A DNA stretch of 54,562 nt, filler included, from Jimgerdemannia flammicorona (lineage: Eukaryota), in NCBI GenBank assembly GCA_003990765.1. It is 2 parts of 2 records of this genome, joined end to end, with 100 filler letters (N's around TTAATTAATTAA, not from the genome) between each part and the next. Parts side by side here need not be neighbours in the genome. Positions count along the whole stretch, not along the records: positions 1 to 27,232 come from RBNJ01000650.1; positions 27,333 to 54,562 come from RBNJ01000651.1. One strand, 5' to 3'. Both the position numbers and the translations under genes were made by a program. Positions within the stretch are counted from its first letter, which is position 1; the number at the start of each line of letters is the position of its first letter. This document shows, piece after piece, positions 3 to 29,562 of the stretch. Below the pieces are notes generated by a model, which searched no databases, was not told the DNA's origin, and saw only the letters and a list, made by a program, of their open reading frames with translations.

Positions 3-33
<31 letters not shown>

Positions 34-3855: not shown

Positions 3856-3859
3856 GTCA

Positions 3860-6800: not shown

Positions 6801-7212
6801 CCCAATAAATCATGGGGTTTTCTTATTTTAACCATAGAGTTCCAAGAATGATCTCATTGTCAGGAAGTGGTACAATTTGGAGGGTAACATATACTCGGTA
6901 GTCACCAATACGGAAGGGTAGATTGCAGACTTCCTTGCTAATGACATGTGAGGTTCCATCAGTTGTGGTAACTGCTTGAGTTTGTTGTACCGGGGAGGTG
7001 AAGACCTTGAGTCTATTGGCTGTTTCTTCATTGATGAAGTTGCCTGAGGCACCACTATCTATCATAATCTTGACAGGTACTTGGTTGACAAAAGCTTGAA
7101 GTGTAAACAGTTTGTCTGATCCAATAGTGGTGATTTCGGTTGTAGGAGCTTTCCTTCTGTTGGTTCTTCTTTGAGCCAGTTCATTGACACAAGAGAAGCA
7201 ATCATTGATCAT
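3860..7212 (-). pseudogene. pol of element A (PR, RT, RNase H, integrase), multiple stops
   Basis: PR IMIDSGASGNFI (about 7050); [18 protein letters not shown] (about 6000); RH TDASN, DHKSL, IQYRPGKENIVADTISR; IN core about 4300-4800. Confidence 0.9.
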
Positions 7213-7334
7213 TCAGGAAGAGTACATTCCAATGCCATGGGGACATCAGCCACTAGGTATATATCCATCTTCGATTTTCTTATAGAATTGTTCTTCTTTA
7301 TTCGTGGTAGGTTGGGCTGGGGCCTTGTTTGATG

Positions 7335-7745
7335 AACCAAATTCTTTGGATCCTCGGATGGTAGGCAGTAGTTCAGGGACTTCCTTGACTGTCAGGGTTG
7401 ACTCAATTTTTTCGAATAGGATCTAGGCAATGCAGAATCCAATGGGGATCTTGAAGGGTATCCAACTATGGTTTCAGATGAGGATAATAATTTCGCCTGT
7501 ATAATCCTTGTCAATGGCTCCTCCTTCTACTGAGAGTCCTTTCAATGCTAGGCTGCTGCGACAGCATATTCTTCCAACATGTCCTTCAGGGATTTGGATG
7601 CTAATTCCTGTATAGACTTGCTTGACTTCTCGGTTGGAAACTGTAGCTTCTTCAGCTGCATACAGGTCATATCCAGCTGCTTTTTGACTTCCTTTAGTTG
7701 GGGCCTTAGCAGTTTGTCTTAACTTGACAAAGTCTAGTATTCTGG
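7335..7745 (-). pseudogene. dUTPase domain of element A, between gag zinc knuckle and protease
   Basis: KAPTKGSQKAAGYDLYA, RSSLALKG, GGAIDKDYTGEI, RGSKEFGSS: trimeric dUTPase motifs 1, 2, 3 and 5. Confidence 0.9.
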
Positions 7746-7749
7746 TGGT

Positions 7750-9700
7750 CAGGTTGTTGAGGTGGTGCAGAGTAGTAACAGTTGCTCGTGTTGTTGTTCG
7801 GGGTTTTCAGTTAGGGTAGGCACTGGCCATATATTCTGTCTTTCAGCAATAGAAGCATGCTCCACTTCTTCGAAGTTCATTCCTTTCTCCTTCAGTGAGT
7901 TTCTTAAAGGTACTCGGCTGGGTGGGTTTATGATTTCTGAGTGTCTATGAAGTGGATGTTGAGGGAGCTTGGGATGCTTCATGCTTGGGTTCTTCTTTTT
8001 TGGTCCAAGTCTTTTCCTTGTTGTTAAATTGCCTTCAGGGCAGAATTGGTCCAGCTGTTAGAATTCGCTTGACCATAGTCTTGATTCTTACAAGGCACTA
8101 TTGTTGGTGATCACAACCAACTGGGCAGCCTTGTTCTCAGATTTTTCTAGTAAGCTATTCAGGCAGGGCATCAAATAAATAGTCTGCTCTTGTACCATTT
8201 CGTGCTTCATCATTGGCAATATATCCTAGGCCAACAGTATTCAGGAGTGACTCAAGTTTTGTACAGAAGGTTTCGAATTCTTCCTTGTCATGTATATTGA
8301 ATTTGAGGTTGTAGAGTTTTACTCGAGATTCAGCAATCATAGTTTCACTATGGTATTGAGCAATCATGAGTTGTTTGAGTCCAGGGGCTGCAGGATGGGC
8401 TTCATATCCTGGGGCATTGTTTGCTGCATTCTGAGCAATTACTGCAGGTTGGGTGTCCCATGTGAGAGGTTTTTCAGGAAGGGTTCGCCACCATTCTTTG
8501 GCAGGTTCTCGGAAGAATGTAACAACTTGGCGGACATAGGCTGTAGTGGTAGCAAAGAGTTGTTCTAGAGTGTGGTCTTGATTGTTTGTCAGGAGGCAGT
8601 CAGCAACTCACTCATTGGTCCATTGATTGGCTTCGAAGTTGGTGTCAACTATACTAATGAAGCTTTGGACTTCTTGTACAGTACCATTGAAGGTAGATAG
8701 ACTCAGATTTTTGGTAGGTCAGGTCTGTTCAGCTAAGGTAGTAATGGTTGCTGCCATTATTGCTACTTGGGCTGTGAGGTCTAGAATCTATTGGTTCGCC
8801 ATGTTGTATACTGGAGGCGGTTGGACTACTGGTAGTGGTGTTACTAGTACTACTTGAGATACTGGTGCAGAGTGTGAGAGAGTTCTTTGGGTCTGTGTAA
8901 GTTGCTAAAGTAGTAGTTGTGGGTCTGGAGTAAGGGCTCGATAGGTAGCTGTCTGTTGTTGTGTAGGTGTGTTCTATCCGGATAGAGGTGCGTCTCCTTC
9001 GGTGGTGTATCTGGGATCGAATTCACTAAGATACTCCTCCTCCTCTTCAGTTTGGTCCCCATGTAATTGGGTTTGCTCAGCGTCAAAGTAGACAGAATCA
9101 GTGATATATCTGATTTTGGAAGGACTTAATTCAAAGTCAAGTTTAGGTTCGGTATTAGTGTCTGATTCAGATAGAGCTGTAGCAGGGCCTGCTTCAGGTT
9201 CGGGGTCGGGTAGTTGATGAAGGGTTTCTCTTGCTTCTTCTTTAAGAATATGGTGGGCCTTACTGTTCTGGAATTAGTAGTATAATGCGGTCTTGGTCCT
9301 GGCATGGTGAAAGTTGGTAGAGTTGAGCCACTTGGCTACAGAGGCTTGGGCTTCGTGAGGAACTAAGACTAGAAAGACTACTGCTGGTTGTCCTAGGTCA
9401 CTTGGATTTGTGGAGCTGACAAAACTCTTGTTGAGAAGAGTAAAGAAGGCTTCTATAAGATCTTCTTCATCTTGACTTGCTGGGTGTAGAGCAAGGAGTT
9501 CAGTGAATAGGGTTTCACCTATTTGCTGATTTAATCAGAGACTTCTTTCTTTGAATGAAGTTTGTCCCACTTGTTGCAGATGTAGAGGTCAAATTGTCCT
9601 TGTACATCTGGTTCAATTCCCTCCAGATTGTCAGATAGTTCAGGATAAATTCCAGTTCAGAGGTTGGGCTTTATACCAACTTGTAGGAATTCTCAGAGGG
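7750..9700 (-). pseudogene. gag of element A
   Basis: Decayed frame after the PBS ending in ACFYCRKTEYMASAY (ACFYCQKTEYMASAC in the copy near 49030), a decayed CCHC knuckle; ORF pieces 8155-8367 and 8850-9086. Confidence 0.7.
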
Positions 9701-9746
9701 GTTTGTAGCAGGGTGAGGAAGCGTCTTGAAGTAGAATTGGATTGTA

Positions 9747-9760
9747 AACTGCTGCTACCA
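9747..9760 (-). promoter_or_regulatory. Primer-binding site, likely tRNA-iMet
   Basis: Minus strand TGGTAGCAGC 3 nt after the 5' LTR (TGGTAGCAGCGG in the copy at 27517-27528); TGGTAGC matches the 3' end of eukaryotic initiator Met tRNA. Confidence 0.8.
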
Positions 9761-9763
9761 AGT

Positions 9764-11885
9764 TGTAAGAGGGTTGCTTTTTAGGGTAACCATTATGTAG
9801 TTCTGGAAGGGTTTTCTGGAAGTTCTGGATATTCTGGAAGTTCTGGATATTCTGGAAGTTCTGGATATTCTGGAAGTTCTGGATATTCTGGAAGACCGTT
9901 TTCTTAAGGTCAAGATCAATTTAGTATGGAGTACATCCTCTATGCTTATTGATTTCAAGATTGGGTTGACATCTCAACCAAAGTCTTTTTTTGGACTAGT
10001 TCTGGATGTTTAGGATTTTCCATATTTCAGAAAGTTCAAGAAACTAAGACCAGCTTAGTTGAATTGGCGTATTGCTGCAGACAATACCCAATTAGGAAAT
10101 TTTGTGATAGGGTTAAGAGTGGGACCTAACAGAGAGCAGATTTACTTAAGAGTAGTTTGTGGGTTATTAAATAGGTTTATTTGCTATTTATGATATTGCT
10201 ATACTAGGAGTAGTTGTGTGAAGGAATATTGTAGGGAAGTGCTCAGGAATGTTCTTGTATGTTCGAGTCTGAGATTCTGAGATCTGAGGGAGGGGGTATT
10301 TATACTAGTGAGGGGCTATCTGGACTATGCTAGATATGGATATAGCACTTAGTGCCTTGCTGAGTCAGAATGCAGTCATGTAGTACAAGTGGGATCTGAT
10401 ATGTCAAAAGATTGTCTGACTGCTGAGTCAGTTCACAGTTACATCGTATAAGGCTAATATAACTATACTATGACTGCTAAGCTATTTATAGGTTTAGACG
10501 CTGTCTAGGTAGTCTTCAATGACATCACCATCAATGACATTATCTCTGATAAAGTAGTTGTCTAGGAAGAGTGGTTTGTGGATTACTTCTCCTTGTTCAC
10601 TGAGATAATAATACATTGGAACTTTATCACCATCCCACAGGATAGCATCATCTGTCTCGTAAGCTGGATGAGGTATTGGTGGATGAAGGAGGAGTGCATC
10701 GTCTTCGCTTTCATTGGATTCACTGTCTGCATACCTTCTATAAGTTACAGTACTATGAGTTGTGGGGTTGTAGTAAGCTGGCAGCTGTGGTTCATATCAC
10801 TCATACTCAGGTGGTGGGGTGGTCAGTTCGATCTCGAGAGTTGTCTGAAGGTACAGGTTGTGTTCTCCAGTCTCTTCATTATAGTTGAAGTAATCAGGAG
10901 TAAACATGGATTGGTATTCATGTCAGTGGTCATTGTCCCAATAAGTCTTGTATGTGGTTATGAACTGTTGTAAGTTCATTGGTAAGGTTGGTGGTGTGAT
11001 CAGGGTTAGTAGAGATCCTTGGCTTGAGGTCATGTCAGCATCAGAGGGATCATTGTCTTCTGCTTTATCTTCATCAAAGTGGATTATATCATAGATGTCC
11101 TTTATGGCATACCCGACTTGAGGCATTTGCAGGATATGGTCATTTGGGTGTGGGAAGGTTCTGTCTGTGGTTTCAACATACTCGAGGTACTTGTGGTTGA
11201 GTTCTTGTATTATGTTGTTGATTTGGCTGTAGGACAGGGTAGCAACCATTTCGGTGGTAGTAACTCGGAGGTGAGGAATAACAGTGCTATACTCATAGAA
11301 GAGTTCTCGATGTTTGCAGGTGATAAGCTTCTGGTGTTGAGACATCTGGGTAATGTCTATATCATGGTGGTGTTTGACCATGTCTTCTAGGAGGCAGCTG
11401 ATCTGGTAGTACATAGCTTGAGATTTGTCTGATTCAGTGGGCTTTGCTAAGCATGTTCAGGGCATTCCATTGGGCTTCCATGAAGTAGAGGAGTGCTAGG
11501 TTATGGATATTTATGAGGGGCAGAGGGGGTGTGGCTCAGTTGACAATGGCATTCCAAATGTCAGTATAGATGCGGTTATAGATCTCGGTGGTCATGTTTG
11601 TGTATATTCAGAAGTTGTGATTGTTGTTTGTTTTGGTTCTCTGTTTTGATGCATCTTGGTGCCCAGTATATATGTATTTGGTCCTGATTGGTAAGATTCT
11701 GTTTATGTGAATCTTGTATTCTGTAACTTCGTGTTGACTCAGCTTTGTGCACTGTGACTTCGGTTTGACTCAGCTTCGTGATCTTGCAAGTGATTTCCAG
11801 ATTTGTTCAGAGGTCACAGGTGATTTCAGTGGCTTGTTCAGAGGGTGACATGTGATTTCGGTGGCTTGGAGGTTGTGCGCTTATA
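9764..11885 (-). repeat. 5' LTR of element A, containing accessory ORF copy 2 (about 10494-11595)
   Basis: Direct repeat of 1156-3253, adjacent to PBS. Confidence 0.95.
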
Positions 11886-13299
11886 CTCTGGGACATATTC
11901 AGTTCTCCATCCCAAAAGCTGTTGTTACTGAAGCTGTTATCTACGATATGATTCTTGGCACCAACTGGATGAAGGAAATGAATGCAGTCATTGATATCGG
12001 TCAACAAGTACTCAAGTTTGACTATTGAGGCAAGAAGTACAGAGTTAAGGTGACCAGCTATGAGCAATCAAAGAAGTAGAAGAAGGTCACTATTCAGGAA
12101 GAATATGCCAGCAGTGAGGAGTCTACTACAGAAGAGAAAGAAGAATCTGAAGATGGAAATGATCCCAGACTCAATCCCCGAATCAATCTGGTGGATGACA
12201 GACCAGAAGATAATGTGTGGGCCAAGAACACTATCCCTATCACCACTGGAGCTATTGCAGGAGAAGCCAAAGGATGCCCTACCTGCCTCAAGAGACACAA
12301 GTGTCCTGAGCACTCCTCCAAGATCATGGGAACAAGGAAATCGCCTGGCACAGCCTGCCCAGAGTGCAGAAGAAAGAAGAATAAATGCAGACATATTCCA
12401 GAAATACCTGCAACCAAAGCTGCAGAAGTATAAGCAATTTGGGGTCAAGAATCATCTAAGGAAGAAGAAACTTCTGACCAAGAAGTTCCTGAACAAGAAG
12501 TACCTGAAGAAGAAGAGGTCCCTGAACTCATCCCCTGGGATGATCCTTGTTGGACACCACCTGAAGACAATGACCCTTGGAATATGGAAGAAGGACCCAG
12601 TACAATCACCATTATTCCTAAGAAAGAAACTCACCAAGAGAGGGTTTTTTGGCTAAAAAGATGTTCATATCAAATGGTCTTCCACTCTCCCAAAGACTAC
12701 TGCTATCAGTGTCATCTGTTGGACTAATAAGAAAGACAGAGACCCCAGAGACCAGAACCTCCAACTACTCTTGTACAGTCCACCATCTTTCAAGAAGTCA
12801 CCATAAGGTTACAAAGTCAATTTAGAGGACAAGGCTTCTTCACCCGAACAGAAATATACCCCTTGTCTACTCTTTCCCCAACTTATGATCAAGATGGATA
12901 CTGATTCCCAAGACAACAAGAGATAAATAGCTGGGAACATTATTTTTGGGCAATGGGATATTGCAACTATGGGAGACACCCTGACTATCAAGACTGCAGA
13001 CATCAGAAGATTCATCTCAGTCATGATGTTGCAGTGCACACTTTGAAGAAAGGAGATAACTGAAGCCAGATCTGAGAGAAGACATCCTGGCTCTCATCAG
13101 ACATGCAACCTACCAAGGATGGGCAGAAGATGCTACCAACTTCATGGAAGCCCTTGACCCTACAGGAAGAAGGGGAATCAACTACCTCCGAGACCCCTCT
13201 ACTGGAGCCAGATGGCCACACCTCAACCTTAGAGCTTGGAGGCTTTCTGCTAGTGGAGCTTCAGCCTTAGGAAAGCCTGAACTCAGCAAGGATATTGCC

Positions 13300-13705
13300 C
13301 AGTATGTCCTGCTGCACCCCAAGGCCAAACCCCTGACCAATGCCCACCCAGAGGATATAGGATATGATCTTCACAGCCTGGAGGACAAATCTATCAAGCC
13401 TGGAAAAACCTTCATGGTCAGAACTGGATTAGCCATGCAGCCACCCCAAGGAGCTTATATTCAACTGACCTCAAGGTCCAGACTTACCAGAAAAGGAATA
13501 ACTGTGGAAGGAGGAACTATTGACCCAGGATATACAGGCGAAATCAAGATTATCTTACACAACAGTAGTGCAGAATGGCACCAAATCATTAGAGGACAGA
13601 AGATTGCCCAAGCAGTCTTCATGAAGGTCAAGACCCCACAGTTACAAGAAGTCTCTGAACTAACTGAAGGAATAAGACAAGCCAAGGGATTTGGAAGTTC
13701 AGACA
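13300..13705 (+). CDS. dUTPase domain of element B, located between PR and RT
   Basis: ORF 13144-13944: DIGYDLHS, RSRLTRKG, GGTIDPGYTGEI, QKIAQAVF, RQAKGFGSS. Confidence 0.9.
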
Positions 13706-14104
13706 AGAAGGAAGTACATCTCCTTCAAGTCAACCACCTCAAGAGGAATGCTCCCCAGCAAGTGTACCACCAACCAGTCAGACTGCACAAGAACCTCATT
13801 CTGGAACCTGGAGAACAAACCACATTCGAAATCTTTGCACCACCTGACCCCAGAAACCTTTTTTTCGAGCCCAAGGAAGATATCCCACACCTGGACAATG
13901 AGGGACATACATTCCCTGACAAGATGAATCCAGTACACTCCTGAGCAACCAACCAAAGTTGGGAAACCATCATCTTGTTGAAAGGAACCATCATAGGACA
14001 TCTGGTGCCTTTTCTCAACTGAACTCATAGGGAAGGTTATGAACTAAACCTATCAGCAACAGGTCCCAGAAGAAAGGAAAGGCCCCTCTGCGACCCAGGA
14101 GACA

Positions 14105-16596
14105 GTGAAGCCTTCCACCAACATTGGAGAAAAATTGACACCTCAACAACAGCAACAACTAGTAGAACTTCTCAACAAATATCAAGATATCTTCACCACC
14201 GACTATGGCAACCTGCCATACAACCCATTATATCACCATAGCATAAATATAGGAAATGCAACACCCATTCGGCAGAAACCCTATAGAATACCCCATCATC
14301 TAAAAACATTCGAAAAAGAGCACATCCAAGAACTCTTAGACAATGGAGTCATCCGACCCTCTACCAGCCCCTGGGCTAGCCCTATACTTATTGTACCAAA
14401 GAAAGGAGGATGGAGACTCTGCATGGATTACAGGAAACTCAATTTAGTCACTGAAAAGGATGCCTATCCTCTGCCTAGAATCAATGACCTTTTGGATCAG
14501 TTACAAGATGCCAGATACTTCAGCAGCATGGACCTCTTTGCAGGATTCCATGAGATCTCCATGGACCCTAAGGACATTTAAAAAACAGCCTTCCTTGCTT
14601 TAAGAAAACTGTTTGAATACCTCTGAATACCCTTTGGACTTTGCAATGCACCCCTGACCTTCCAGAGGATGATGAATTCAGTCTATACCCCCTTGATCCA
14701 CTACTGCCTGATTGTATACATAGATGATTCCAACATCTATTCAGCAAATTTCGAAGAACACCTGCACCACCTAGAGGAATTCTTCAAGCTCACCCATAAG
14801 AACCACTTGAGATTGAATGCAAAGAAATATTACTTTGGAAAACAGAAACTCAAATTCCTTGGATTTATAGTTTCAAAAGAAGGAACTCATGCAGACCCAA
14901 AGAAAACTGAGAAGATCAACAATTGGCCAGTACTTAAGACTCCAAAAGAAACACTATCATTTCTGATGCTAGTATCCTACTACAGAAGGTTTATCAAGGA
15001 CTTTGCTCAAATCACTGCCCCAATCCAGATCCTTCTCAAGAAAGGAGTACCATTCAAATGGACAGAAACACAAGAAAAAGCCTTCAGAGAACTCAAGAAC
15101 CACATGACTATAGTACCAATCCTTGTGCGCCCCAATCTACAGAAGTCATTCATTTTATATACAGATGCTTCTAAAGATGGCCTCAGGGCAGTTCTGGCCC
15201 AAGAAGGACCCAATCAACAGTACCATATGATAGCCTATGCAAGCAGAGCTACCAATCAGCAGCAGATGAACTATGGTAGCACTAAACTGGAATGTCTTGC
15301 AGTCATATGAGTGGTCACCCTGTTCAAGTATTACCTCATCAGAAAAAGGTTCATCCTGATTATAGACCATGCAGCCCTCAAATGGTTATTCAACCACAAG
15401 GAACCCACTGGAATCCTAGCCCGCTGGATTCTTATCCTTCAGGATTACAAAATCACCATCATCCACAAAGCAGGGAAAGCCTACAACAATGTTGATGTAC
15501 TTTCCCACCAGCTCCAATGAACCAGAAGAAGGGTGTCCCAAGGAACTACACCCTAAAGGAAGCTCCTCAGACCATCGAGGCACAAGAAGATCTCATCCAT
15601 AAAGAACATCAGAAAGCCCATCAAGGACAGACAAGTACAGAAGACAAGATTCAAAAACAATACCAACATTGGCCCCACCTTAGAACACAAGTCTGAAACA
15701 TCATTCAGAAATGTGACATCTACCAGAAGTACCAAGGAAAGAAGAACTATCAAGCCCCTCTGCAACCGATTCCCCCACCCACTCATATCTTTCAAAGATG
15801 GAGAGTAGACATAATTGAACCCCTACCAGTTACACTAAGAAGAAACAAATACATCCTTATGTTTGTGGAACATCTGACCAAGTGGCCCAAGACTTTTCCA
15901 ATAGAAATCGCAGATGCCTTAATCATTGTAGGCCTTCTCCATGGACTCACACTCAGATATGGACCCCCAGAAGAACTCATCTCTGACCGAGGCATGGAAT
16001 TCATCAATAACATAATCACAAGTTATGCCCGAATTCACAAGATCCACCTCAAATGGACCACATCATACTACCCTCAGACCAATGGCATGATAGAGAGAAT
16101 GAACCAGACCATCAAGAAAGGACTTGCCCAAGTCAATTCTACCAATTGGGACCTCTGCTTACCTGAAATCCTATGGGAAATCTGGAACACCCCTGCTGCA
16201 TCAACCAAACAAAAGCCCTTCGAAATGATGTTTGCCAAGAAAACCAGAACTGCTGACCATGAGAATGTCGGAAAGCTTCTTGAAAAAGGAGATTAGCTGC
16301 AAAATGAAGCCTGAATTCAGATTATTAAAGCCCAAGAAAGACAAAAGAAGTACTATAACCAAAAACAGAAAGATCAGGAGATCAAGATTGGAGATCAAGT
16401 ACTAGTTTGGAGGAGCATGATTGAAACAAATTTTGCCACCAAATTGGAGCCCAAATAGGAAGGACCTTATCTTGTACACAATATCAGAGGAATTAGCATC
16501 TATTTAAGAAACATGAATGGATGAATCCTCAGAACACCAGTATACATCAATCGCCTCAAGATATACCTTTCCCCACATCATGAATCAGAGAGTTGA
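14105..16596 (+). pseudogene. RT-RNase H-integrase of element B (stops and frameshifts)
   Basis: ORFs 14105-14581, 14669-15310, 15311-15520 and 15859-16296 carry canonical Ty3 motifs; GPY and RLKIY tail ending in TGA at 16594-16596. Confidence 0.92.
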
Positions 16597-17095
16597 CAAC
16601 TGCCTTCAAACTCTTGTTCTCAGCTCATTTCAATCACTGCTAGTTTCCCTATCCCAATTCTGAGAAATCAATAGGAACACTCTCCAAAAGATCCAGATTC
16701 ATCAAGAGAATCTTGTCCTGGCCAGACAGTTGCTATAGGTCCACCAACTCCAGGCCCATTATGCAATTGGAGAACAATTGCAGAACCTCCTAGTCCCAGA
16801 ACAAACATATATCAGAAATACCACAGGACTATCAAGAAGAAATGCCACTGCTGCAGACAGGCTGTACACTCTTTATAAGCAAAACCCTGCAGCCCTGATG
16901 CAAGCATAATTCTCCTGGCATGATGCACAAGAAATGAATCTAGCCACCTACCTGAGTATCATCAATGTTGTCGAAATCCTATTCCCAGAAGAAGAAGAAG
17001 AACCCTTGGAATAGAGCAACCATGGTATAGATGATAAAGATGATGGAACAGGTATTGATGCAGAAGATGCTTATCCACACTGAGATGATGACTAA
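16580..17095 (+). pseudogene. ORF3 of element B (env position): uncharacterised protein of about 171 aa with acidic tail
   Basis: Hand translation from ATG 16580, overlapping the IN stop, to TAA 17093-17095; no frameshift; five internal stops all explicable as C>T from CGA/CAG/CAA; core HQLQAHYAIGEQL...TGLSRRNATAADRLYTLYKQNP. Confidence 0.72.
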
Positions 17096-17135
17096 AGGAC
17101 AGTCTGAGGACAGACCATCCTTTAGTGGGGGCTGA

Positions 17136-18542
17136 TGTGACAAACCAAGATGTACCATCCAAATTATACCTTAGCTAGATAATGTGAATAATTAGCTAGA
17201 TGATGTGAACACACAGCATAGTAACCAGTAACCATTGCTGTGGAAACTGTATAAATAGCCAGACTACTAGATAGAGTACATCTGTATAGGACCTGCACAC
17301 CTGAACAGGACCTGTACACCTGTACCGGACCTGCACAACTTGCCATAAGTAGCAAATCTATAGTTAGCCATATAGCAACCAGATAGCAACCATAATGTAT
17401 AAATTACCCCAGAGACAAGAGTGAATAAACCTCAGTCCGAAAAGTTGAATACAAACCAAAGCAAAAGTCAATTGTCTGGTATACTTAGGAGAAATATCTG
17501 CCAAAAGCCACTTGATCTAGGAAGGATTGCAACACTTAGGAGATACGCCTGCCAATGAGCCACTGCCAAGAAGTTGTGAGCTTGGTCCTCTTCTCTTCCA
17601 CTCTGGTCCACTTTCCAATATAAAGAATAAGTCCATTTTTGGTTCACTTGCCAGATAAGTCTGAAGATTTGCTGCCCAAGTTCAAGGAAGAACTTTGCTG
17701 CTGTTTTCCAGTTGAAGCCAATGCAGAAGAATCCGCACTATAGTATTCTCAGTTGAAGCCACCAATTTAGAAGAATCTGTGCCATCTGAGTTATTTCCCA
17801 GAAGCCCGCCGATTCAGGAAGAATCTGCATCATCTACTGTTTTTAAGTTATCTGCCACATTCCCAGAAGAACCCTGCCGATTCAGGAAGAATCCATATCA
17901 TCTGAGTTACCTGAGTTATCTGAGTTATTGAATTATCTACCTCCTATGACATCCAAGTTATCTGAGTTATCCAAGTTATCTGAGTTATCTACCACTAAGT
18001 CATTCGTCTATTCCCAGTAAGCCTGAGAAGAATCCGCCCCAGTATAATTCCCAGTAAGCTGCCATTTCAGGGAAGCCATGCCAAATTAAGCCATCCATCA
18101 GAAATCACATACTTTTGGAAACCTGTTGTACTATACAGGGATCGTCATGCTATACAAGATTGTCACACAGAAATCGCATAAGGAGAACTACTAAATTGCC
18201 AGACCATCATGCATAAGGAGATCATTGCACTATGCAAAGAAATCACCTGCTACTCAAGAAGGAAACCACTCGTGCTACACACAAAATTCTACCAATTCCC
18301 AGTTGACCCAAGAAGGAAACTCATACACAAATTGCTGCTACACCCAGAGATCTGTTCCAATTAGGAAATTGACATACAAATCACTCGCAGATATCCAGCT
18401 TTAACTATTATACCACTAAACACCAAGGACCTCAGGAATCTTAGAACATTTTGTTGCTTTTTGACAAAGTAACTGAGAGCTCAAGCCAAACTACATCAAC
18501 TTCCAACCTTGTAATTTACCTTCATTGAGCCGGCACATTACA
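17136..18542 (+). repeat. 3' LTR of element B (about 1.4 kb)
   Basis: Begins TGTGAC directly after the PPT and ends ...CATTACA where copia sequence starts; TATAAATAG near 17250, AATAAA near 17424; internal short tandem repeats (atctgagtt, cctgtacac). Confidence 0.75.
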
Positions 18543-20641
18543 ATACTCAAAAAAAGAGAAATATTGAGATACATCTCTATAGAAATATTATAGAACTTAT
18601 CAGTATCTTTCAAGATATACTATATACTTCAGAAATTGGTAAAAATATCTTTTCAATAGAAAAAATGATATTCTGTAATAACAAAGAGATATATATTTAT
18701 GTAAAGAATATAATAGTATAATAATAAGATGATGATAGCTTGAAATATAGCAATCTTTATATGATCAATAAAATGCTGAATAGTGTAAAACTCTCTATAT
18801 ATATATATAATAACTATTTGATGTATCCAATATGTGGCATTAATACTTAGGATATATTGGCAAATTAAGCCTCAGAAGAATAATCCAAAGTAGCTCAGTA
18901 AATGGACTACTGACATATATATCTAAAGGATGATTTTTACAAGACATCCTGACAACTATTCAAAGAATAATTAAAATACACCTCAGGTTCTGGATCTCAT
19001 TCACACTAATATATATAGTCCTATATATATACCATTATACTTTGGAAAGAAGAATTTTATTATATTTATTGATAATTATATATATAAAACATATGTATAT
19101 TTTCTATCAGCAAAGAGCAAAGTCTTGGAAAAATTCAAAGAATTCAAAGCAATTACTAAGAACAAAACAAGATGTAGAGTATATACTATATAATCAGATA
19201 ACAGATAAAATATGCAATGATATATTCAGATAGTTTCTGAGAAAATATAACATATCTTATTAAATGACAGCTTTCTATATACCTCAGCAAAATGGTATAG
19301 CTAAGTGATTTAACTGTATGATTATTGAAATAGCTTGAATGATGATTAATGTAGCCAGATTATCATATTTTTATTAGGCTCAAACTATTAATATAATAGC
19401 ATATATACATAATTGATATATATCTTAACTACTAAGTAAGAGTTCTAGTAATAACAACAAGTATTCTAGAGATGATAATCTTACCCTTGAAAAATTATAG
19501 AGCAGCTCCAAATTAGATGTATCTCATCTATGAACATTCAGATGTGACATATATATTTCCAACAAAAGTAATATCAATTAACACAAATTCAAGCTAAAAG
19601 TCAACAAGCATATATATATTTCTTGGGTATTCCAGTAAGACATATAGACTCTGGAATCTACACAAGCAGCATGTAGTTATTTAAGATAATATAATTCAGA
19701 GAAAAAGGAAGTCAAGAATCCCATATAGATATACTAATCAAGATCTCTATGTTCTAGTTAGTACAAATATAGCAATTAAAGAAACTAGTATCAACCTCTC
19801 TAGCAGTTAATCAAAATTATTTTCAACTGCTATATATATCTGAACTAGAATTATCTGAGCTAAGAATAATAGAGATCAAAGATAAAGATAATGACAATAT
19901 CTCTAGTAATAAGGAATTTTTTATGAAGGGTAAATAAATATAAAAATACTCCAACATTCATCAAGAAACTTATTCTAATTTAGGAAGTTATTGAGATATA
20001 TCAGCAAGCTCTAGATAGTAATAACAGAACTATGTAAACTATGCTAAAGTATATAAATATATATATATCATAACTTCTAGTGAGCCAAATATATATAATA
20101 AATTCATGCATTTCCTGAATAGCAAAAAATAAAAATAGATAATAGATGAGGAATATGATTTACTTATTAAGAATAGCATATGTGATCTTGTACCCCTTCC
20201 ACCAAATTACCAAATAATTAAATCCAAGTGGGTCTATAGAATAAAGTGTAATATCAATGAAAGTGTAGAGTGATATAAAGCTCATTTTGTTGCTAAGAGA
20301 TACTTATAGAATTATATTATAGACTATGATAAGACATTTTTGCTAGTATTTAAACTTACTTTGCTTAGAATACTCCTTATAATTAATATGCTATATAATC
20401 TGAAATTCCATTAAATAGATATCAAAACAGCATTCCTGAATAATGATATAGATACTAAACTATATATCTACCAACCATAAGAATATAATCTCTATGATAA
20501 TGATAAGAATGAGCTCATATGTAAATTATATAAAAGATTATATTGCATTAAACAAGTAGTACAATTATAGAATAAAAGGATTGATAAATATCTCCTTAAT
20601 GATGAATTCACATATTGTAAAGTAGATAATTACATATATAT

Positions 20642-22269
20642 TATAATGGTGATCCCAGAATGATGACATCAGCACAGGAGACAGCCTTTCCTTACAAGCT
20701 ACCAGATCAGAGTACAAGAAGATTATATGGCATATGAGATGAGTGATGATGACCAACTGTAAGTCATTGTAACTACAGTTCAGATATCTTGAGGAATATA
20801 AAAGAAGGATCAAGAAACTGCAGTAGCAGCAACCAACAAGACCCACTAATCTCAAAATAGCTCAAAGACTTACTACAAATGAAATGCCTGCCACTCACCA
20901 AACCTCAAGATCAAGGAACCACTAAGGTACCTCAGTGAAGAAAGGATGTTTCAAGACATCAGAAGAGCCATGAGGACCCACTCAAGAAGGACTTCTAATG
21001 TCAACCTAAGTACTGGTGACCCTTATTACTATATCCTCGACCACTGTAAAATGGAAACAAGGATCACTATTGCTACCAAATGCCTCCAAATATGGCAGGA
21101 GTAAGAAATAGGAAACCTCCTCTACCAGGAGTTCTCACAGGCCAGCACTCAAGAGCTATAAGATGTCACTCTTATGGATATATATGAAACAAGGACAGCT
21201 GAGAAGATCTATCAGATCTTCAGACATACACCATGGTTAATCCCCAACTTAGAGTATGTTAAAGTCTCAGATTTCAGAAACCTATCAGCCTGCTGTATTG
21301 ATGCACTAGAAGTCAGAGTGGCTACAGAAGCCCAGTCCACTATTACTCTCAATAGTGATGAAGTAGAAGACTTCTGGCACCCCATCCTCTAGGACAACCC
21401 AGACCAATTCCTGCAAGGATTGATCTCAGTATTCCAAGGCCCAAGCATCCAGGTTAGACCTCTCTAAGATCTCACATTTGTTCCCTATTTTGTAGAAGAG
21501 AACCTCATAGACTAGAGAGCCCCAGACCTCCTTCCCACCACCACCGAATGTGATGACATCATTGGCAATGACATCATTCCATGTGATATATATGAGATAT
21601 ACAACATGCACAAAGTATGCAAAATACGTGACCTATGCAACAACAATGATGAGACAGATGAGACATTTGCAGACCTCATCTCCTTTGAAGACATCCTGAC
21701 CTCTGATGAGGATGAAGCCCTTATGGTCTTGAACATTCTGCTCTGAAATTCTTTAGTGACATCAAATAATGCCAGCACTGGCATTCTGATGTGATACCAA
21801 ATAATACCAGTACTGGTATTCTGAGGTAATACTGAATTATTCCAGCACCATTTTCCTGTACTACCAAAATTATACTAGTATTTTGAACCTATACAACCAT
21901 CAGTACCAATCCTGGAACTTAGCAGTTTTTCCTGTTCTGGCATTTTATTTTAGTTATTGGAATTTATATTTAGCTTTATATCTTAGCAACCATTGAATTA
22001 TATTTTATATAAATACCCCTCTTATTTCCTCTGAAATAAAGTCAGTCAAGTTTCAGTCAAGTTCACTTACACACACTTCCTTACAAGCAATCTAAGAGAT
22101 AACAAGATAGTTAAAGATAAGAAGTTTAAGGACTATAAGACCTTGGAAAGGCACTCTAATAAGAGCTTGCTTATAACAAACTTGAGTTAGTCTAAGAGAT
22201 ATACCTTGAAGAGAATCTGGCATATTTGAAGGACTCAGTGATCACTACATGACAATATCTAATATTATA
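20642..22269 (+). mobile_element. Solo-LTR-like element C (about 1.6 kb) inserted in copia RT
   Basis: Splits copia RT between D..IY and WVDD; TATAAT...ATTATA ends (decayed TGTAA...TTACA); TATAAATACCCC near 22008 followed by AATAAA near 22035, the same layout as LTR A; exact ends and TSD ambiguous. Confidence 0.65.
20946..21746 (+). pseudogene. Accessory ORF inside element C, homologous to the LTR-A ORF and to B ORF3
   Basis: One frame with C>T-type stops: MFQDIRRAM...PYYYILDH...LQIWQE*EIGNLL...DVTLMDIYETRTAEKIYQIFRHTPWLIPNL..., followed by an acidic tail; true start may lie further upstream. Confidence 0.7.
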
Positions 22270-22689
22270 ATAATAGCATAGTATTCATCAGTATTTGAGT
22301 TGATGATATAATTATTATTACTAGCAAGAATAGACTTAATAGAGTTAAAGAAGCCCTATACTAAGAATTTAAGATGATAGATATAGGTGATACATCCTTT
22401 CTTTTGGGGATATTTATTATATATGATAGAAATATACTCACTATATATCTTTTGCAAGTGACATATACTCAAACAATTCTCAAACATTTTAAAATAAATG
22501 AATGTAAGCTCATTGTTACTTCTATAAATACTTCTATGAAGTTAAGGAAGCCAGATACTACTCCTGAGAATAATAACAATATACTAGTCAAAAATAGACT
22601 CAAAGATATATATATCTTATTAATAAGTAATTAGTTCTCTTATATATCTCATGCTATAAATGATGTCTAATATATTATATATTATAAAT

Positions 22690-23942
22690 AAGATAATATA
22701 GTATTCTTTCTACTATGATAATTTATATTAGAGTATTATCAAAAGAATCATATTCCTTTCTCTACTACCTTATCAGTTACAATGGTTTGGTAGGCAATCT
22801 TTTGAGTCCACTTTCCACAATTATTATCCCCTCTACCTTGGATTGGTTTGCTGTACCTATTGTAGGGCAGTGGGAGGGAGGCAATGGTGATAAGTTGCTC
22901 TTTTATCAGTGTCCAATCAGTGTCTTCTCTACTTTTTCACAGATTCTGGTACCTTTGGCTATATCTGAAGTACATCTATTTTGGTGCAGCACCTTCTTCC
23001 TTTTATCATCACCAACAAGGTACTGTTTTGGTATATTATGAGTTATGTAGAGAGTTGGCTAACCTTAGGCATCAAGTATCTAGTATAGGTTACCTGCAGG
23101 TCCTCAGTATCTATAGTGAGGTTCTCTGGTTTTAGCGAGCTTCCTGGCAAGTGCAGTTCTAGTGTAGGTGACTGTTCTTCAGGTGTTATCAAGATGGAAG
23201 AGGAGATGGCCATCACAGATAAGAGGAAGGGTGATTACAGTAAACCAGTAGGATGCCAGGCTGGAGGCAGTTGTCAGAGCTGGGGTAAGTACTGCTTCAG
23301 TGGGGCCTTTTGATTGATGTAGAGTGATTAAGTGGTAGGTATCACTCTTGGCTTTTTTTGGCAATTCAGTGGATTGGATCCCAGTTGTTGGGGGGGATTG
23401 GAGGCCTAAGGCTACTTATTTCAGGCATCTTGGCTATACTCAACTGGAACTAGGAGCTGATATAGCAATGTGATCAAGGCCTGTAGACTTGAGTATTGGG
23501 GTATTGGAGGTCTCCTCCTATCTCACATATAAGTTCTTTACTCATCTTGACTGGGAGGACTAGGCCCTATCTACTATAATGTACTTTGATGAGAGTTTTT
23601 CTTTATCTGTTATTCTCTTTAGGGTGGCAGAGGCTGTTCTATTTAGCTTGGACATGGCCTTATATATATGATGGGGTCTTGGACATATGCTTTCAGTTAT
23701 TGGTGTATGGCTGGATTCCCCCTGATAGTAGGAAGAGTATGGTATATAGAATGAGGTACAGGCTACTATAGGTCCTGCTATACTGGGTATAGTTGAGCTG
23801 CTAGATAATAGCTAGTCTAGGTTAATGGGGGAGTAGTACTTGATGGGTGGTAGGGGAGGGTTTTGGCCTATATAGTCTAGGTTCTCTTTTAATAAAAATC
23901 CACAGGACTTTAAGTTTGTTAAAAAAAAAAAAAAAAAAAAAA
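22690..23942 (+). mobile_element. Unidentified poly(A)-tailed insertion in the copia relic (non-LTR-like 3' end)
   Basis: AATAAA near 23891 and A-run 23921-23942; last about 100 bp similar to 29660-29760; copia frame resumes right after; body not identifiable. Confidence 0.5.
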
Positions 23943-24550
23943 CTATTAAAAGAATATTCAAATATCTTAAGGGTATGGTATACTATATACTCATATTGGG
24001 TGGTAATATCAGATAAAGCAAGAGCAATAATAAGAAAAATATCATTCAGCTATTTAGTATATATGATACTGATTAAGTAAATAATCTTAACAACTACTGA
24101 TATATAACTAGATCTCTCTTCCACATTAGTGAAAGGTCATCATTTTATAGCAAATATGCAAGTAGAGTTTTATAGTAATATCTTCAATATAGATAGAGTA
24201 TTAGGTATTGTCAATGATAATAAAAGAAACTATATAGCTTTATAAACTATTAAAAAAGCTTAGCTTTACTCAAAAGAACTTTATATTGATCAAGCAAGAT
24301 AATTAATTGATAATAGTATATACTAAGAATCCAGTATATCATAGTAGAATGAAACATATTGATATATAATATTATTTTATATAGAAATATATAGAAAATA
24401 GTACTATATACTTAGAATATATATCACTTATAAAAGCTCTTCTAAGGCCAAAGTTTGAGCAATGCATTAAAGAAATAGAACTTTTTTGAATATTACAGAA
24501 TAATGTACTCTCTATACTAGTGTTTTAGCAAAGTTTAGTAGTTAATTATG

Positions 24551-24554
<4 letters not shown>

Positions 24555-24622
<68 letters not shown>

Positions 24623-25350
24623 TAGGATATATCATCTTTTTATTACCATTTAATCTATATAGATAAAATACAATATCCAACCCCTCCCACTATCCAATCT
24701 CTCTAGAGAGAACTCTACTAATCTCTACTTATTTGAATACCACTTGATCTACAATTACCTCTATCTAACTCCTACTTTGCCAGCAGACCCCTTCAATAAA
24801 CCAGTGATAGTAGCCACTCTGAGGCCCCCAGTCCACTCACCAGCCAGTCAAGAGATTCTCCATCAACCTATCTCACCTCAACAATATCTCAGCAAGACTC
24901 AACTACCACTCTTCCTCAAATACAAAGAGCCAATACCCTGCCAGCCCCACTCAAATTGCCAAGGTCTAGCTATACATAAGCCACTCATTCCCCCTATAAG
25001 CCACTCCTTCAAGTCCTCCCAATGGCCCCTCACCTCATCTCCCCTCCTCTGAACTCTCAGACACTCTTTTATAGCAATCTAGAAATTTCCAAGTACCCTG
25101 TACTCCTCCAGCCAATGTTCAGATATTTGTACAAAATTCCCTTCCTACTCTATATTAAGATAATCCTTATACTCAAACTCTCTACTCTCAATCAAATGTC
25201 CAGAGCAGAAGTTCAGTATGATATTCTTCCTTAGCATATACCACTATACCATCCAGAACTTGGGGGGAAACTACTGCTTGACCTCAGTACTCCAGAACCA
25301 AACTCCAGCCCAGTCTCACTCCTCACCTATACCTAGTGCATTGCAACCCA
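24555..25350 (-). mobile_element. 3' end of a LINE (L1/Tx1-like) with poly(A) tail
   Basis: Long T-run 24555-24619; minus strand decayed zf-RVT motif (C)KD(C)...EHWLEE(C)RVLGNF(W) at about 25080-25170. Confidence 0.65.
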
Positions 25351-25359
25351 AGCTGACCC

Positions 25360-25720
25360 ATGTCCATATTTAACCTGACCTGGAATTATATGTCACCTGT
25401 CTTTAACCCGACCAGGAATTATATGTCACCTGTTTTTAACCTGACCCAGAATAATATATCACCCATCTTTAACCTGACCCAGAATAATACATTGTCTATC
25501 TTTAACCCAATCTGGAATTATATATCACTCATCTTTAACCTGACCTGGAAATATACATCACCTATCTTTAACCCAACTCAGAATTATATGTAATCCATCT
25601 TTAATCCAACCCAAGAAATATACATGATCCAACCCAAGAAATATATGTGACCCAATCTGAGAAATATATGTGACCTGATCCTGACCTGTATTTAACCTAA
25701 CACAGACCCATCTTTAATCT
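25360..25720. repeat. 33-bp tandem repeat (about 8 units plus shorter decayed units)
   Basis: Unit tttaacc(t/c)gacc(t/c)ggaattatatgtcacc(t/c)gtc. Confidence 0.85.
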
Positions 25721-26112
25721 GCCTTTAAGCTACAAGGTACCAAAAAAAATATATTGCACATTTAAGATATATATTTAGAATAAACAAATAGAAACACAAT
25801 TAGGAATCAGAAATCAAAATGAAATTGGAAATAAATAGGAAGTAAATTAGGAAAATAAAGAACTTATTGGTATGAATAGATCTTACTCTTCATTGCTATA
25901 AACCAACTAATCCTCCTTCTTCTCATATTCTGAACCATCTTCCTCTATATATTCTAAACTGCATCTTTCTCCGGTAATATTCAGGTTACACAAGACTCAG
26001 ACAACACTTTCTACAACGTTTTTGGTGTCCAGCGACTAACAACATGGATGGCAACGACTGATCTGGTGAGCGTACTGGCCAGGGGGGTGGTGGCGCCTTT
26101 GGCTGGCAGCAG

Positions 26113-27232
26113 GTGGGGAGGAGGGGAGATGGTTTGGGGATGCCAGGGGCCTCGATGGCTAGCCGGGGCCCCAGTAGCGGAGGAAGGGGAGGTCTGAGGC
26201 AGAGAGGAGGGGAGAGGATGACCTTTGCTGACAAGGTCAGGATGGGGGTGATGGCTTCTGGGCTGGATAGTTGGCTGGGCCTGGGGAAGGCTTCGATGGC
26301 TACTACCGGGGATCAAGGAGGTGCACCCCAGGGTGCTTCTGGTGGTAGGGAAGGGGCCGGAGTAGGGGCTGGAGATGTGACGGCTGATGGGGCTGTGACT
26401 GGGGATCTGGCAAAAAATCCAGATGTGACGGCAGTTGGCAATTTGGGACTTGGAGAGGGCATGAGGCCCGGGGACCTGGCGGATGGGGTGACGGGCATGG
26501 TGTCGGCCCCGTTACTCAAGAAGTTGAGGTCAGAATTTGCGGTCACGATGTGCTTCCGGGGCTTGGCAGTGACGGCGAGGATGATTTTGGGGCTGGTGGC
26601 GCAGGAGGCTAAGGGAGCAGCGTCGGTGAAGTTTTTGAGGGGAAAGGAAGGGGTTGAAGTGGGGTTCGAGGAGGAGGATGCCTTGTTGGCAGCCATGGAG
26701 AAGGGGGTGATGGTTGGCGGGGTGGTGGTCCCTATGGCTCGGTGTATGTGCTGGGACCCCCGGGTGGTGCAGTTGACGGTGTGGGACCTCCCTACGGTGT
26801 CGAAGGAAAGGACCAGGGAGTTGGTTGTAGAGGCAATAAAGGAGTATGGCGAAATTGTGGACGTGGGGTTCAAGGTCTGGGAGGGCACGGAGCTTAGAAC
26901 TGGAGACGTCGATGTCAGGGTGAGACTGGCTGGAAAGGAGAATACGGGGAAGTCGAGGGACTGGCCAGCAGCGCTGAGGTGGGGACAAGTGGAGTGTAAG
27001 GTCGCTAGGGTGAAGGGGACTCAGGAGGAGGAGGAGGACTTGCTGGAAGCTCTGGAGGACCTGGAAGGGGCTGTTGCAAGGAGGAGATTAGCCTGGAAGG
27101 AGTTCGAGGCCAGGACGGTGGTGGGAGAGGTGGATGGGAAGAGGGTTCGGATGGAGAAAGGGGCCTGGGAGAAGATGCAGGGGAGGAGGATTCAGAAGGA
27201 GTTGTTGGCAAAGTTGGATGGGGGTAGGGCTG
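26113..27232 (+). CDS. Probable LINE ORF1 (gag-like) of a young non-LTR element, truncated by the assembly gap
   Basis: Uninterrupted GC/CpG-rich frame; TFADKV motif and RRM-like segment IKEYGEIVDV...LRTGDVDVRVRL typical of L1/Tx1 ORF1. Confidence 0.6.
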
Positions 27233-27332
27233 NNNNNNNNNNNNNNNNNNNNNNNNNNNNNNNNNNNNNNNNNNNNTTAATTAATTAANNNNNNNNNNNN
27301 NNNNNNNNNNNNNNNNNNNNNNNNNNNNNNNN
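27233..27332. other. 100-bp scaffold gap with artificial TTAATTAATTAA linker
   Basis: N44-TTAATTAATTAA-N44; the linker has stops in all six frames. Confidence 0.97.
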
Positions 27333-29562
27333 TCCCACTTGTTGCAGGTGTGGAGGTCAAATTGTCCTTGTACGTCAGGTTCAATTCTCTCCAGATTGTC
27401 AGATGGTTCAGGATAAATTCCAGTTCAGAGGTTGGGCTTTATACCAACTTGTAGGAATTCTCAGAGGGGTTTGTAGCGGGGTGAGAAAGCGTCTTGAAGC
27501 GGAATTGGATTGTAAACCGCTGCTACCAAGTTGTAAGAGAGTTACTTTTTAGGGTGACCGTTACGTAGTTCTAGAAGGGTTTTCTGGAAGTTCTGGATAT
27601 TCTGGAAGACCGTTTTCTTATGGTCAAGATCAATTTCATATGGAGTACGTCCTCTATGCTTATTGATTTCAAGATCGGGTTGACGTCTCAACCAAAGTCC
27701 TTTTCTGGACTAGTTCTGGATGTTCAGGATTTTCTGTATTTCAGGAAGTTCAAGAAACTAAGACCAGCTTAGTTGAATTGGCATATCGCTGCAGACAATA
27801 CCCAATTAGGAAATTTTGTGACAGGGTTAGGAGTAGGACCTAACAGAGAGCGGATTTACTTAAGAGTGGTTTGTGGGTTATGGAATAGGTTTATTTGCTA
27901 TTCATGGTATTGCTATACTAGGAGTATTTGTGTGAAGGGGTATTGTGGGGAAGTATTCAGGAAAGTTCTTGTCTGTTCGAGTCTGAGATTCTGAGGTCTG
28001 GGGGAGGGGGTATTTGTACTAGTGAGGGGCTATCTGGACTATGCTAAATATGGATGTAGCACTAAGTGCCTTGCTGAGTTGGAATGCAGTCACGTAGTAC
28101 AAGTGTGATCTGACATATCAAGAGATCGTCTGACTGCTGAGTCAGTTCACAGTCACATCGTACAAGGCTAATCTATCTATACTATGACTGCTAGACTATT
28201 TATAGGTTTAGGCACTATCTGGGTAGTCTTCGATGACATCACCATCGATTGCATCATCTCTGATGAAGTAGTCGTCTAGGAATAGTGGTTCGCGGATTAC
28301 TTCTCCTTATTGGCTGAGGTAGTAATACATTGGAACTTCGTCACTATCCCACAGGATAGCATCATCTGTCTCGTATGCTGGATAAGGTATTGGTGGGCGA
28401 AGGATGGGTGTATTGTCTTCGCTTTCATCGGATTCGCTATCTGCGTACCTTCTATAGGTTACAGCACTATGAGTCGCGGGGTTGTAGTAAGCTGGCGGCT
28501 GTGATTCAAGTTGCTCGTACTCAGGTGATAGAGTGGTTGGTTCAATCTCGAGAGTTGTCTGGAGGTACAGGTTGTGTTCTCCGGTCTCTTCATTGTAGTT
28601 GAAGTAATCGGAGGTGAACGCAGGTTGGTATTCGTACCAGTGGTCATTGTCCCAATAAGTCTCGTATGTAGTTATGAACTGTTGTAAGTTCATCGGCAAG
28701 GTTGGCGGAGTGATCAGGGTTGGCAGAGATCCTTGGCTAGAGGTCATGTCGGCATCAGAGGGGTCATTGTCTTCTGCTTCGTCTTCATCGAAGTGGATTA
28801 TATCGTAGATGTCTTTCATGGCATATCCGACTTGAGACATTTGCAGGATATGGTCATCGGGGTGCGAGAAGGTTCTGTCTGTGGTTTCGACATACTCGAG
28901 GTACTTGTGGTTGATTTCTTGTATCATATCATCGATTTGGCCATAGGACAGGGTAGCAACCATTTCGCTGGTAGTGACTCGGAGGCAGGGAATAAAGGTA
29001 TTGTACTCATAGAAGAGTTCTCGATGTTTGTGGGCAATGAGCTTCTGGTGTTGAGACATCTAGGTAATGTCTGTATTATGGTGGTGTTCGACCATATCTT
29101 TCAGGAGGCGGCCAATCTGGTAGTAGCTTGAGATTTGTCCGATTCGGTGGGCCTTGTTAAGCATGTTCAGGGCATTCCATTGGGCTTCCACGAAGTAGAG
29201 GGGTGTCAGGCTATGGATATTCATAAGGGGCAGAGGGGGTGTGGCTCGGTTGACAATGGCATTCCAAATGTCAGCGCGGATGCGGTTGTAGATCTCAGTG
29301 GTCATGTTTGTATGTTTGGGAGTTGTGGTTGTTTTTTGTTTTGGTTCTCTGACTTGACACGTCTTGGTGCTCAGTATATATGCATTTGGTCCTGATTGGT
29401 AAGGTTCCGTTTGTATAGATCTTGTATTCCGTGACTTCGTATTGACTCAGCTTTGTGCACTGTGATTTCGGTTTGACTCAGCTTCGTGATCAGGCAGGTA
29501 ATTTCCAGATTTGTTCAGAGGGTGACGTGTGATTTCAGTGGCTTGGAGGTTGTGCGCTTACA
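27333..29562 (-). mobile_element. 5' LTR (27532-29562), PBS and leader of another element A copy, cut by the gap
   Basis: Similar to 9565-11885; least CpG-decayed copy. Confidence 0.93.
28208..29305 (-). pseudogene. LTR-encoded accessory ORF of family A, best preserved copy (365 codons, two C>T stops)
   Basis: ORFs 29060-29305 and 28307-29059 are in frame across a TAG (CAG in other copies); the TAA at 28307 is CAA in copies 1 and 2, extending the frame to TAA at 28208-28210. Confidence 0.85.

Follow-up and report, generated by a model that had tools for sequence, protein, structure and literature searches.

This work concerns three open reading frames (ORFs) carried by decayed retrotransposons with long terminal repeats (LTRs) within a 54,562-nucleotide stretch of the genome of the fungus Jimgerdemannia flammicorona (assembly GCA_003990765.1; two records joined end to end across filler N's), hereafter the window. 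The three ORFs, named after their carriers A, B and C, are probably (at a rough probability of 0.7) diverged members of an orphan accessory gene family of fungal Ty3/gypsy-type LTR retrotransposons, with a fixed place as the last ORF ahead of the LTR promoter. An earlier note on this DNA had proposed one uncharacterised accessory protein family with a helical domain and an acidic tail, present in three different LTR families either in the env slot or inside the LTR, and had named profile comparison, a shared fold and the ratio of nonsynonymous to synonymous divergence (dN/dS) as ways of checking it. The peptides on which that proposal was built are real: a six-frame search recovered 16 of 16 quoted strings, those of A on the minus strand at 29012-29284 (with more copies at 2671-2799 and 11340-11357), those of B on the plus strand at 16742-16876 and those of C on the plus strand at 20943-21221, and the frames are broken solely by stops of the C>T/G>A type.

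Profile evidence for a common family

Database searches provided 14 relatives of the three ORFs (P0001-P0014), most of them uninterrupted, of which P0001 and P0002 belong to A, P0003-P0007 to C (60-70% identity) and P0008-P0014 to B (50-83% identity). Family profiles were built from the window ORFs together with these intact database relatives. The result to which we give most weight is a scan with these profiles of all six frames of the whole window, approximately 109,000 residues. The four best non-self matches of the B profile were three copies of the A ORF (domain expect values, E, of 0.045, 0.11 and 0.97) and the C ORF (4.1), and the two best non-self matches of the C profile were again copies of the A ORF (E of 1.4 and 5). 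Direct comparison of the family profiles with hhalign gave E=0.028 for A-C, E=0.013 for A-B and E=0.018 for B-C, all three alignments sharing one register in which the IG blocks are superposed. When the columns were shuffled, the real score was reached by 0/150 nulls for A-C, 0/150 for A-B and 1/150 for B-C; shuffling in blocks of 10 columns, it was reached by 1, 1 and 2 of 110, respectively. Moreover, an unguided MAFFT alignment of 13 sequences of the three families reproduced the register given in the earlier note; in P0002 numbering, columns I64, G65 and L68 do not vary in it, and Q57, Y62 and A91 hardly do. On this evidence, we consider it highly likely that the ORFs of A, B and C form one family. 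The earlier proposal is supported in this respect, the three being most likely related proteins that combine a helical domain at the N-terminus with an acidic tail. The likeness is confined to the protein level, as had been claimed: comparison of the window with itself by blastn gave no cross-family match, the B 3' part and the C insertion matching only themselves.

Protein architecture and database searches

In this reading the three proteins share one build, comprising a helical N-terminal domain of ~115 residues, a variable middle and a strongly acidic, aromatic-rich tail. The acidic tails noticed earlier carry a net charge of -13 to -18 with 3-11 F/W/Y residues, and in composition, though in composition only, they resemble acidic transcription activation domains, which are disordered, negatively charged and interspersed with aromatic or bulky hydrophobic residues. 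The N-terminal domains are mildly basic or neutral (isoelectric points, pI, of 6.3-10.3), and the C relatives have arginine-rich N-termini. An AlphaFold2 (AF2) model of the B protein has a mean predicted local distance difference test score (pLDDT) of 72, with seven helices, values of 76-88 over residues 30-140, and a disordered tail below 50. No 19-residue Kyte-Doolittle hydropathy window exceeded 1.4 in 13 of the 14 relatives, the exception being P0006 (1.78), whose window includes E and D residues; by this measure the proteins have neither signal peptide nor transmembrane segment, as had been stated. Two candidate identities were rejected on this basis: a retroviral or errantiviral env, with no membrane segment by hydropathy and no Pfam env family, and a superantigen like Sag of mouse mammary tumour virus (MMTV), for which the U3 position agrees in the case of A, but a membrane segment and any Pfam or PDB sequence match are lacking.

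The family also appears uncharacterised in the searches made, none of which matched a characterised domain. Pfam analysis of 111 window ORFs and 8 intact relatives gave no match for the ORFs of A, B or C, and no relative was found among PDB sequences, whether the single A, B and C profiles or a merged one served as query (best E 0.11). With the A profile, a HMMER search of 1.84 billion representative sequences recovered nothing besides P0001 and P0002, two proteins near-identical to A. For B and C a word-indexed tool was used instead, and the case that they lack distant relatives is accordingly weaker than for A. In the ESM Atlas, an intact A fragment gave no usable match and P0008 gave just unnamed or unrelated clusters at a template-modelling (TM) score of at most 0.37. 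Foldseek searches with the B model returned nothing at E<=0.001 either in the PDB (best E 1.1) or in a library of viral folds (best E 0.11), and the viral contigs scanned for B and C contained neither. An all-against-all fold comparison of the B model reached a best Z of 4.2, with DNA-binding entries (helix-turn-helix domains such as phage Mu Mor/C, ParB/KorB and DeoR) scoring Z 2.7-3.7 over model residues ~43-139; several small DNA-binding helix bundles among the best matches score Z 3.0-3.7, no more than chance would give for helical models.

Carrier elements

Carrier A is represented by a complete element of family A, A1 (1156..11885, minus strand), identified by its LTR pair, Pfam domains, polypurine tract (PPT), primer-binding site (PBS) and target duplication, and containing gag followed, by Pfam, by dUTPase, protease (PR), reverse transcriptase (RT), RNase H and integrase (IN), in that order. 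Its 3' LTR (1156-3253, minus) and 5' LTR (9764-11885, minus) are 2.0-2.1 kb long and ~90% identical in the blastn comparison of the window with itself, with ends TGTAAG..CTTACA. The PPT AAAAAGGAGAGAG (3255-3267, minus) stands directly before the 3' LTR, the PBS TGGTAGCAGCAG (9749-9760, minus) lies three bases past the 5' LTR, and the target duplication is of 5 bp (CTCTA/CTCTG). Direct TG..CA LTRs, PBS, PPT and short target duplication place carrier A among the Ty3/gypsy elements (Metaviridae), and both A (minus) and B (plus) show the pol order PR-RT-RNase H-IN typical of Ty3/gypsy in their Pfam domains.

The best copy of the A ORF (28208..29305, minus; 365 codons plus stop, with in-frame stops at codons 82 and 333) is found in a further family-A LTR, A2 (27532..29562, minus; 2031 bp), whose adjoining internal part is cut by the N's at 27233-27332. 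The ORF spans LTR nucleotides 258 to ~1354, wholly within U3. Further copies lie in the 3' LTR of A1 (1871..2964, minus; frameshift near 2410), in its 5' LTR (10497..11595, minus; frameshift near 11412), and in a heavily C>T-mutated LTR, A3, which starts at 41718 (ORF at 41985..43076, plus). All four copies and P0001 have a common stop position (..DYPDS(A/I/V)-stop). A variant element, A', has a 3' LTR at 46076..47563 (minus), with termini, PPT/PBS and core promoter as in A, and a partner 5' LTR at 50957-52443 (minus). The gag-pol of A' is 88% identical to that of A, and in its LTR the ~1.15 kb ORF-bearing part of A is swapped for ~0.65 kb of unrelated sequence without a long ORF, which leaves only the last ~15 codons of the A ORF. 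As a separate observation on the 5' LTR of A1, one contig of sequencing run X2 (X1 and X2 are runs merely guessed to be RNA) omits 70 bases with GT..AG ends on the plus strand, antisense to A, at 11730-11801, within the first 150 nt of the A LTR; this could be a plus-strand intron of an antisense transcript, or a deletion variant.

Carrier B was interrupted by A1. The 3' part of this family-B Ty3/gypsy element, recognized by Pfam, extends over 11891..18541 (plus), with a putative right end, and its 5' part over 1-1155 (plus), the two being split by the insertion of A1 into the B protease; the PR frame runs from 1155 on to 11891 once one 5-bp duplication is removed, and contigs of another sequencing run join the two B flanks across A1. 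The order in B is PR, dUTPase (13060-13941), RT, RNase H, IN (to ~16560), ORF3 and LTR, so that PR precedes dUTPase in B, whereas dUTPase precedes PR in A. Identity between A and B is 36-44% in RT-RNase H, 39% in dUTPase and 28% in IN, with none detectable in gag, and the divergence of the ORFs is in line with vertical descent at this distance. The claim of different LTR families is supported, A and B being distinct in pol identity (28-44%) and in the order of PR and dUTPase; C is seen only as a solo LTR-like insertion. ORF3 of B (16580..17095, plus; 171 codons plus stop, five in-frame stops) follows directly after integrase, and in three of three metagenome loci (L001-L003) a B-type ORF3 lies behind an intact integrase and slightly overlaps it. 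A candidate start for the 3' LTR of B lies at 17133 (plus), at the junction of AGTGGGGGC and TGATGTGAC, and the putative end of the element, ..CACATTACA, was read from the sequence at 18541 (plus). An alternative LTR start at 16592, where CAGAGAGT, resembling the A PPT, is followed by TGACAAC, is less likely, because the conserved ORF3 start MNQR[IV]D is encoded here and, in intact copies, pol and ORF3 overlap. At 17880-17990, presumed to be R/U5 of the B LTR, short units resembling CTGAGTTAT are repeated in tandem and read LSYLSY in one frame.

Carrier C is a family-C LTR-like insertion of ~1.6 kb (TGGTGATC..GATCACTACA; 20647..22249, plus, the right end possibly at 22265), placed in the RT of a decayed, very AT-rich copia element, whose RVT_2 frame breaks at ~20645 and resumes at ~22262. 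X1 contigs part from the window sequence just before 20649, at the edge of the insertion. With imperfect terminal inverted repeats, a TATA motif, the promoter motif shared with A and B, and AATAAA, the insertion, single-copy in the window, looks like a solo LTR in its sequence features; a clean 5-bp target duplication that restores the copia frame was found at neither candidate end. The C ORF (20884..21746, plus; roughly 270 codons, four in-frame stops) ends in ..LNILL-stop; the Met of its longer form is at 20884, a frameshift lies near 20930, and the Met of MFQDI is at 20946. The surrounding copia element holds a long T run (~65 bases, about 24480-24545), and in its 22784-23889 part (~1.1 kb) X1 and X2 contigs start or stop with loose ends, one X2 contig linking 23856 to the end of an A LTR (9764) on the opposite strand; this part may be another inserted repeat.

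Position relative to the core promoter

A core-promoter motif, GTATAAAT(T)ACCCC, is present in each of the six A/A' LTRs as well as in B and C, with just one further occurrence in the 54.5 kb; AATAAA comes after it. In the LTR bearing the best A ORF, the motif TACAAATACCCC (28007..28018, minus) lies 190 nt past the ORF stop; in B, TATAAATTACCCC (17398-17410, plus) lies 303 nt past the ORF3 stop; and in C, TATAAATACCCC (22008..22019, plus) lies 260 nt past the ORF stop. The further A/A' copies are at 1667-1678, 10293-10304, 43270-43281, 46560-46571 and 51433-51444. With the motif 190-303 nt 3' of the stop in A, B and C, each of them has the ORF as its final gene ahead of the LTR core promoter. 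This shared position is a second, independent link among the three ORFs.

In A, and apparently in C, the PPT/U3 boundary is ~240-260 nt upstream of the ORF. The gene thereby belongs to U3, is duplicated into the two LTRs and persists where only a solo LTR is left. For B, in which the ORF adjoins integrase or overlaps its end, the LTR start most likely follows the ORF. The two locations named in the earlier note are both found, inside the LTR for A and after integrase for B, but its suggestion that the gene had moved between them has to be revised, as the ORF is the last one, 190-303 nt upstream of the same motif, in all three carriers. The place of the gene is better described as fixed, with the PPT/U3 boundary shifting across it, than as changing by movement of the gene.

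Selection, recombination and contig coverage

For ORF3 of B, dN/dS was 0.15-0.21 in the three of six pairs with computable dS, and 0.11-0.17 for integrase; the remaining three pairs have saturated dS values above 1.1, and dN/dS is therefore to be read as rough. Within these limits, the ratios show purifying selection on ORF3 of B. The gene is nevertheless far more diverged than the adjoining integrase, nucleotide identity falling from 0.85-1.0 to 0.4-0.7. Between loci L001 and L002, identity is 97-100% throughout integrase but drops to 55-80% in ORF3, L001 there coming closer to the window type; L001 is a recombinant with a breakpoint inside the B-type ORF3, at the equivalent of window positions 16600-16760. 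Other assemblies contain ORFs without interruption that agree with the window copies in length and ends, at 50-83% identity.

Regarding transcripts, X1 and X2 were kept as contigs, whose depth and holes cannot rank parts of a gene, and their coverage was not counted as evidence either way. X1/X2 contigs cover the A LTR, the B 3' part and the C insertion. The gag-pol of B (11902-16570) has no X1/X2 cover, and the gag-pol of A (7233-9233) has no X1 and very little X2 cover; a DNA-like run, X3, covers all 30 bins.

Remaining features of the window

Overall, the window is a nest of decayed LTR retrotransposons adjoining a small island of ordinary eukaryotic genes. By Pfam, this island (30320-39766, between repeat nests) comprises Mnd1 (30320-30565), a topoisomerase III with GRF zinc fingers (~33.5-38 kb, minus, split by introns), and Thg1 (~39-39.8 kb, the island ending at 39766). 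The repeats are rich in C>T and G>A changes. A3 is the most damaged copy of the A LTR: 198 of its 253 private changes are C>T or G>A (139 and 59, respectively), and 102 of these 198 are in CpA context, a pattern that resembles repeat-induced point mutation and by itself makes a fungal host most likely. Low-GC stretches with damage of this kind were observed at 18-25.5 kb and 40-45 kb, as well as at 41718-43764. In addition, an open frame of 390 codons with a high GC content (51%), many Gly and Arg residues and no Pfam match runs from 26062 to 27231 (plus) and stops at two 44-base N runs (27233-27276 and 27289-27332).

Alternative explanations and proposed function

Several observations weigh against the reading of the three ORFs as one family with a fixed place. 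At the level of single sequences, no pair was significant in BLASTP at 0.01 (A-C reached E=0.034, with 22% identity over 103 residues, and A-B and B-C were not significant), and the real Smith-Waterman score was reached by 5 (A-C), 148 (A-B) and 494 (B-C) of 2000 shuffles. The profiles are shallow (effective number of sequences, Neff, about 1.4-1.6), and both B and C went undetected by the A profile when all six frames of the window were scanned. The profile-profile check came out divided, with one register at E of 0.013-0.028 and scores rarely reached by shuffles on one side, and hhalign probabilities of 2-3% on the other; moreover, the reversed B profile scored 22.1 against A, almost equal to the 23.7 of the real one, and helical composition may therefore contribute. 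The fold check was likewise partial: the B model has a helical domain, but the AF2 model of C (pLDDT 35) is unusable, and a fold common to A, B and C is not shown by the models. To these points are added the chance-level DNA-binding scores and the saturated dS values given above, the in-frame stops in ORF3 of L001 and L002, the parent element of C, which was not observed in the window, and the B 5' LTR, which lies outside it, leaving the LTR start inferred rather than observed; A', with full gag-pol and no ORF, also implies that the gene is not needed in cis. The three ORFs could then be unrelated, each 3' ORF having been separately acquired or evolved, and their likeness a matter of chance (helices and acidic tails) and of a motif-seeking eye. 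We consider this improbable, since three independent profile comparisons gave one register, shuffled nulls almost never reached the real scores, the best non-self matches of the B and C profiles across the six frames were the ORFs of other families, and the placement relative to the common promoter motif is the same. It is also conceivable that the ORFs are untranslated, being open by chance or remnants of other sequence in a long U3, as all copies in the window are broken and the A' LTR has no ORF. This seems very improbable indeed: the intact relatives from other assemblies have equal length and ends at 50-83% identity, P0001 and the four A copies all stop at one position, dN in B falls far short of dS, and the B domain folds at pLDDT 76-88 over residues 30-140.

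If the three ORFs are one family, its proteins may act as element-encoded regulators of the adjacent promoter. Since the genomic RNA includes U3 of the 3' LTR, A, B and C alike have the ORF in 3'-terminal position, and a subgenomic, spliced or LTR-initiated mRNA would be needed; the protein would be made from such a 3'-terminal message, its helical domain would bind the LTR or a host factor, and its acidic aromatic tail would serve as activation domain. By analogy with foamy-virus Tas, we tentatively favour, among the possible functions, that of a transcription activator of the element's own promoter, although at odds that we place below even. Another reading of the same family, which we regard as rather unlikely, is that of an adaptor or decoy whose acidic aromatic tail would provide short motifs for binding a host protein, its fast evolution reflecting an arms race with the host; such a protein might counter silencing, steer integration or handle element RNA. 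This would accord with the much stronger divergence of ORF3 compared with the neighbouring integrase (identity from 0.85-1.0 to 0.4-0.7), with the mosaic of ORF3 between L001 and L002, with the arginine-rich N-termini of the C relatives, and with the repeat-induced-point-mutation-like damage in the nest, which suggests that the host attacks these elements. On the other side, the N-terminal domains are just mildly basic or neutral (pI 6.3-10.3), and every family has the ORF adjoining the promoter, a placement that speaks no less for a regulator of this promoter. A more far-reaching and, in our view, doubtful proposal is that in A and C the LTR amounts to a gene complete in itself: from a promoter within the initial ~250 nt of U3, the ORF would be transcribed independently of gag-pol, solo LTRs would be expressed copies of a trans-acting regulator, and hundreds of LTRs would constitute a dispersed, recombining family controlling the activity or silencing of its own lineage, the LTR-borne state being created by shifts of the PPT.

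Accessory genes separate complex retroviruses from simple retrotransposons, and almost nothing is known about them in fungi. The family proposed here would provide a protein without detectable relative that is common to deeply diverged elements (28% identity in integrase), in a gene kept under selection in or adjoining U3. The carriers would also offer a natural series in which a 3' gene becomes part of the LTR merely by a shift of the plus-strand priming site, and would indicate that solo LTRs, usually taken as non-coding, can carry a gene. Should the protein indeed regulate host silencing or the LTR promoter, it would offer a way of studying how retrotransposons can persist where the genome mutates its repeats.

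Comparison with known systems

Extra ORFs beyond gag-pol have been described before: in fungal Ty3/gypsy elements the place of the dUTPase varies, and 'additional ORFs of unknown function', without names, are recorded in fungal and other elements of this group (PMC2864245), and bdelloid LTR retrotransposons have an extra ORF beyond gag-pol (PMC5408684). The present elements are like these in having such an ORF, and unlike them in that neither an ORF within the LTR nor the present family is described in the text passages covered. Within the same scope, the literature yielded no description of this protein family, nor of any fungal retrotransposon with an ORF in U3.

The term 'LTR ORF', in the parts of the literature covered, denotes almost only MMTV sag. 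Like the A ORF, sag is a protein-coding ORF of ~300 codons within U3, and is hence present in both LTRs. Sag is a type II membrane glycoprotein, however, whereas the fungal proteins have acidic tails, no hydrophobic segment and no sequence likeness to it.

In foamy viruses, the bel ORFs, that of Tas (Bel1) among them, begin behind env and extend into U3 of the 3' LTR. The fungal family differs from Tas in lacking sequence or fold likeness in Pfam, PDB or fold searches, in its fungal host, and in being carried by Ty3/gypsy elements without env. It resembles Tas in being the last gene of a retroelement, in or overlapping a long U3, and, as proposed here, in joining a binding domain to an acidic activating C-terminus and in acting on the element's own promoter. 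In human and simian immunodeficiency viruses (HIV/SIV), the accessory gene nef is 3'-terminal and extends across the PPT into the beginning of U3. Nef is an unrelated, myristoylated protein of animal lentiviruses, and PDB and viral fold searches gave no link to it; nevertheless, nef illustrates that such a 3' gene may be placed on either side of the boundary or across it.

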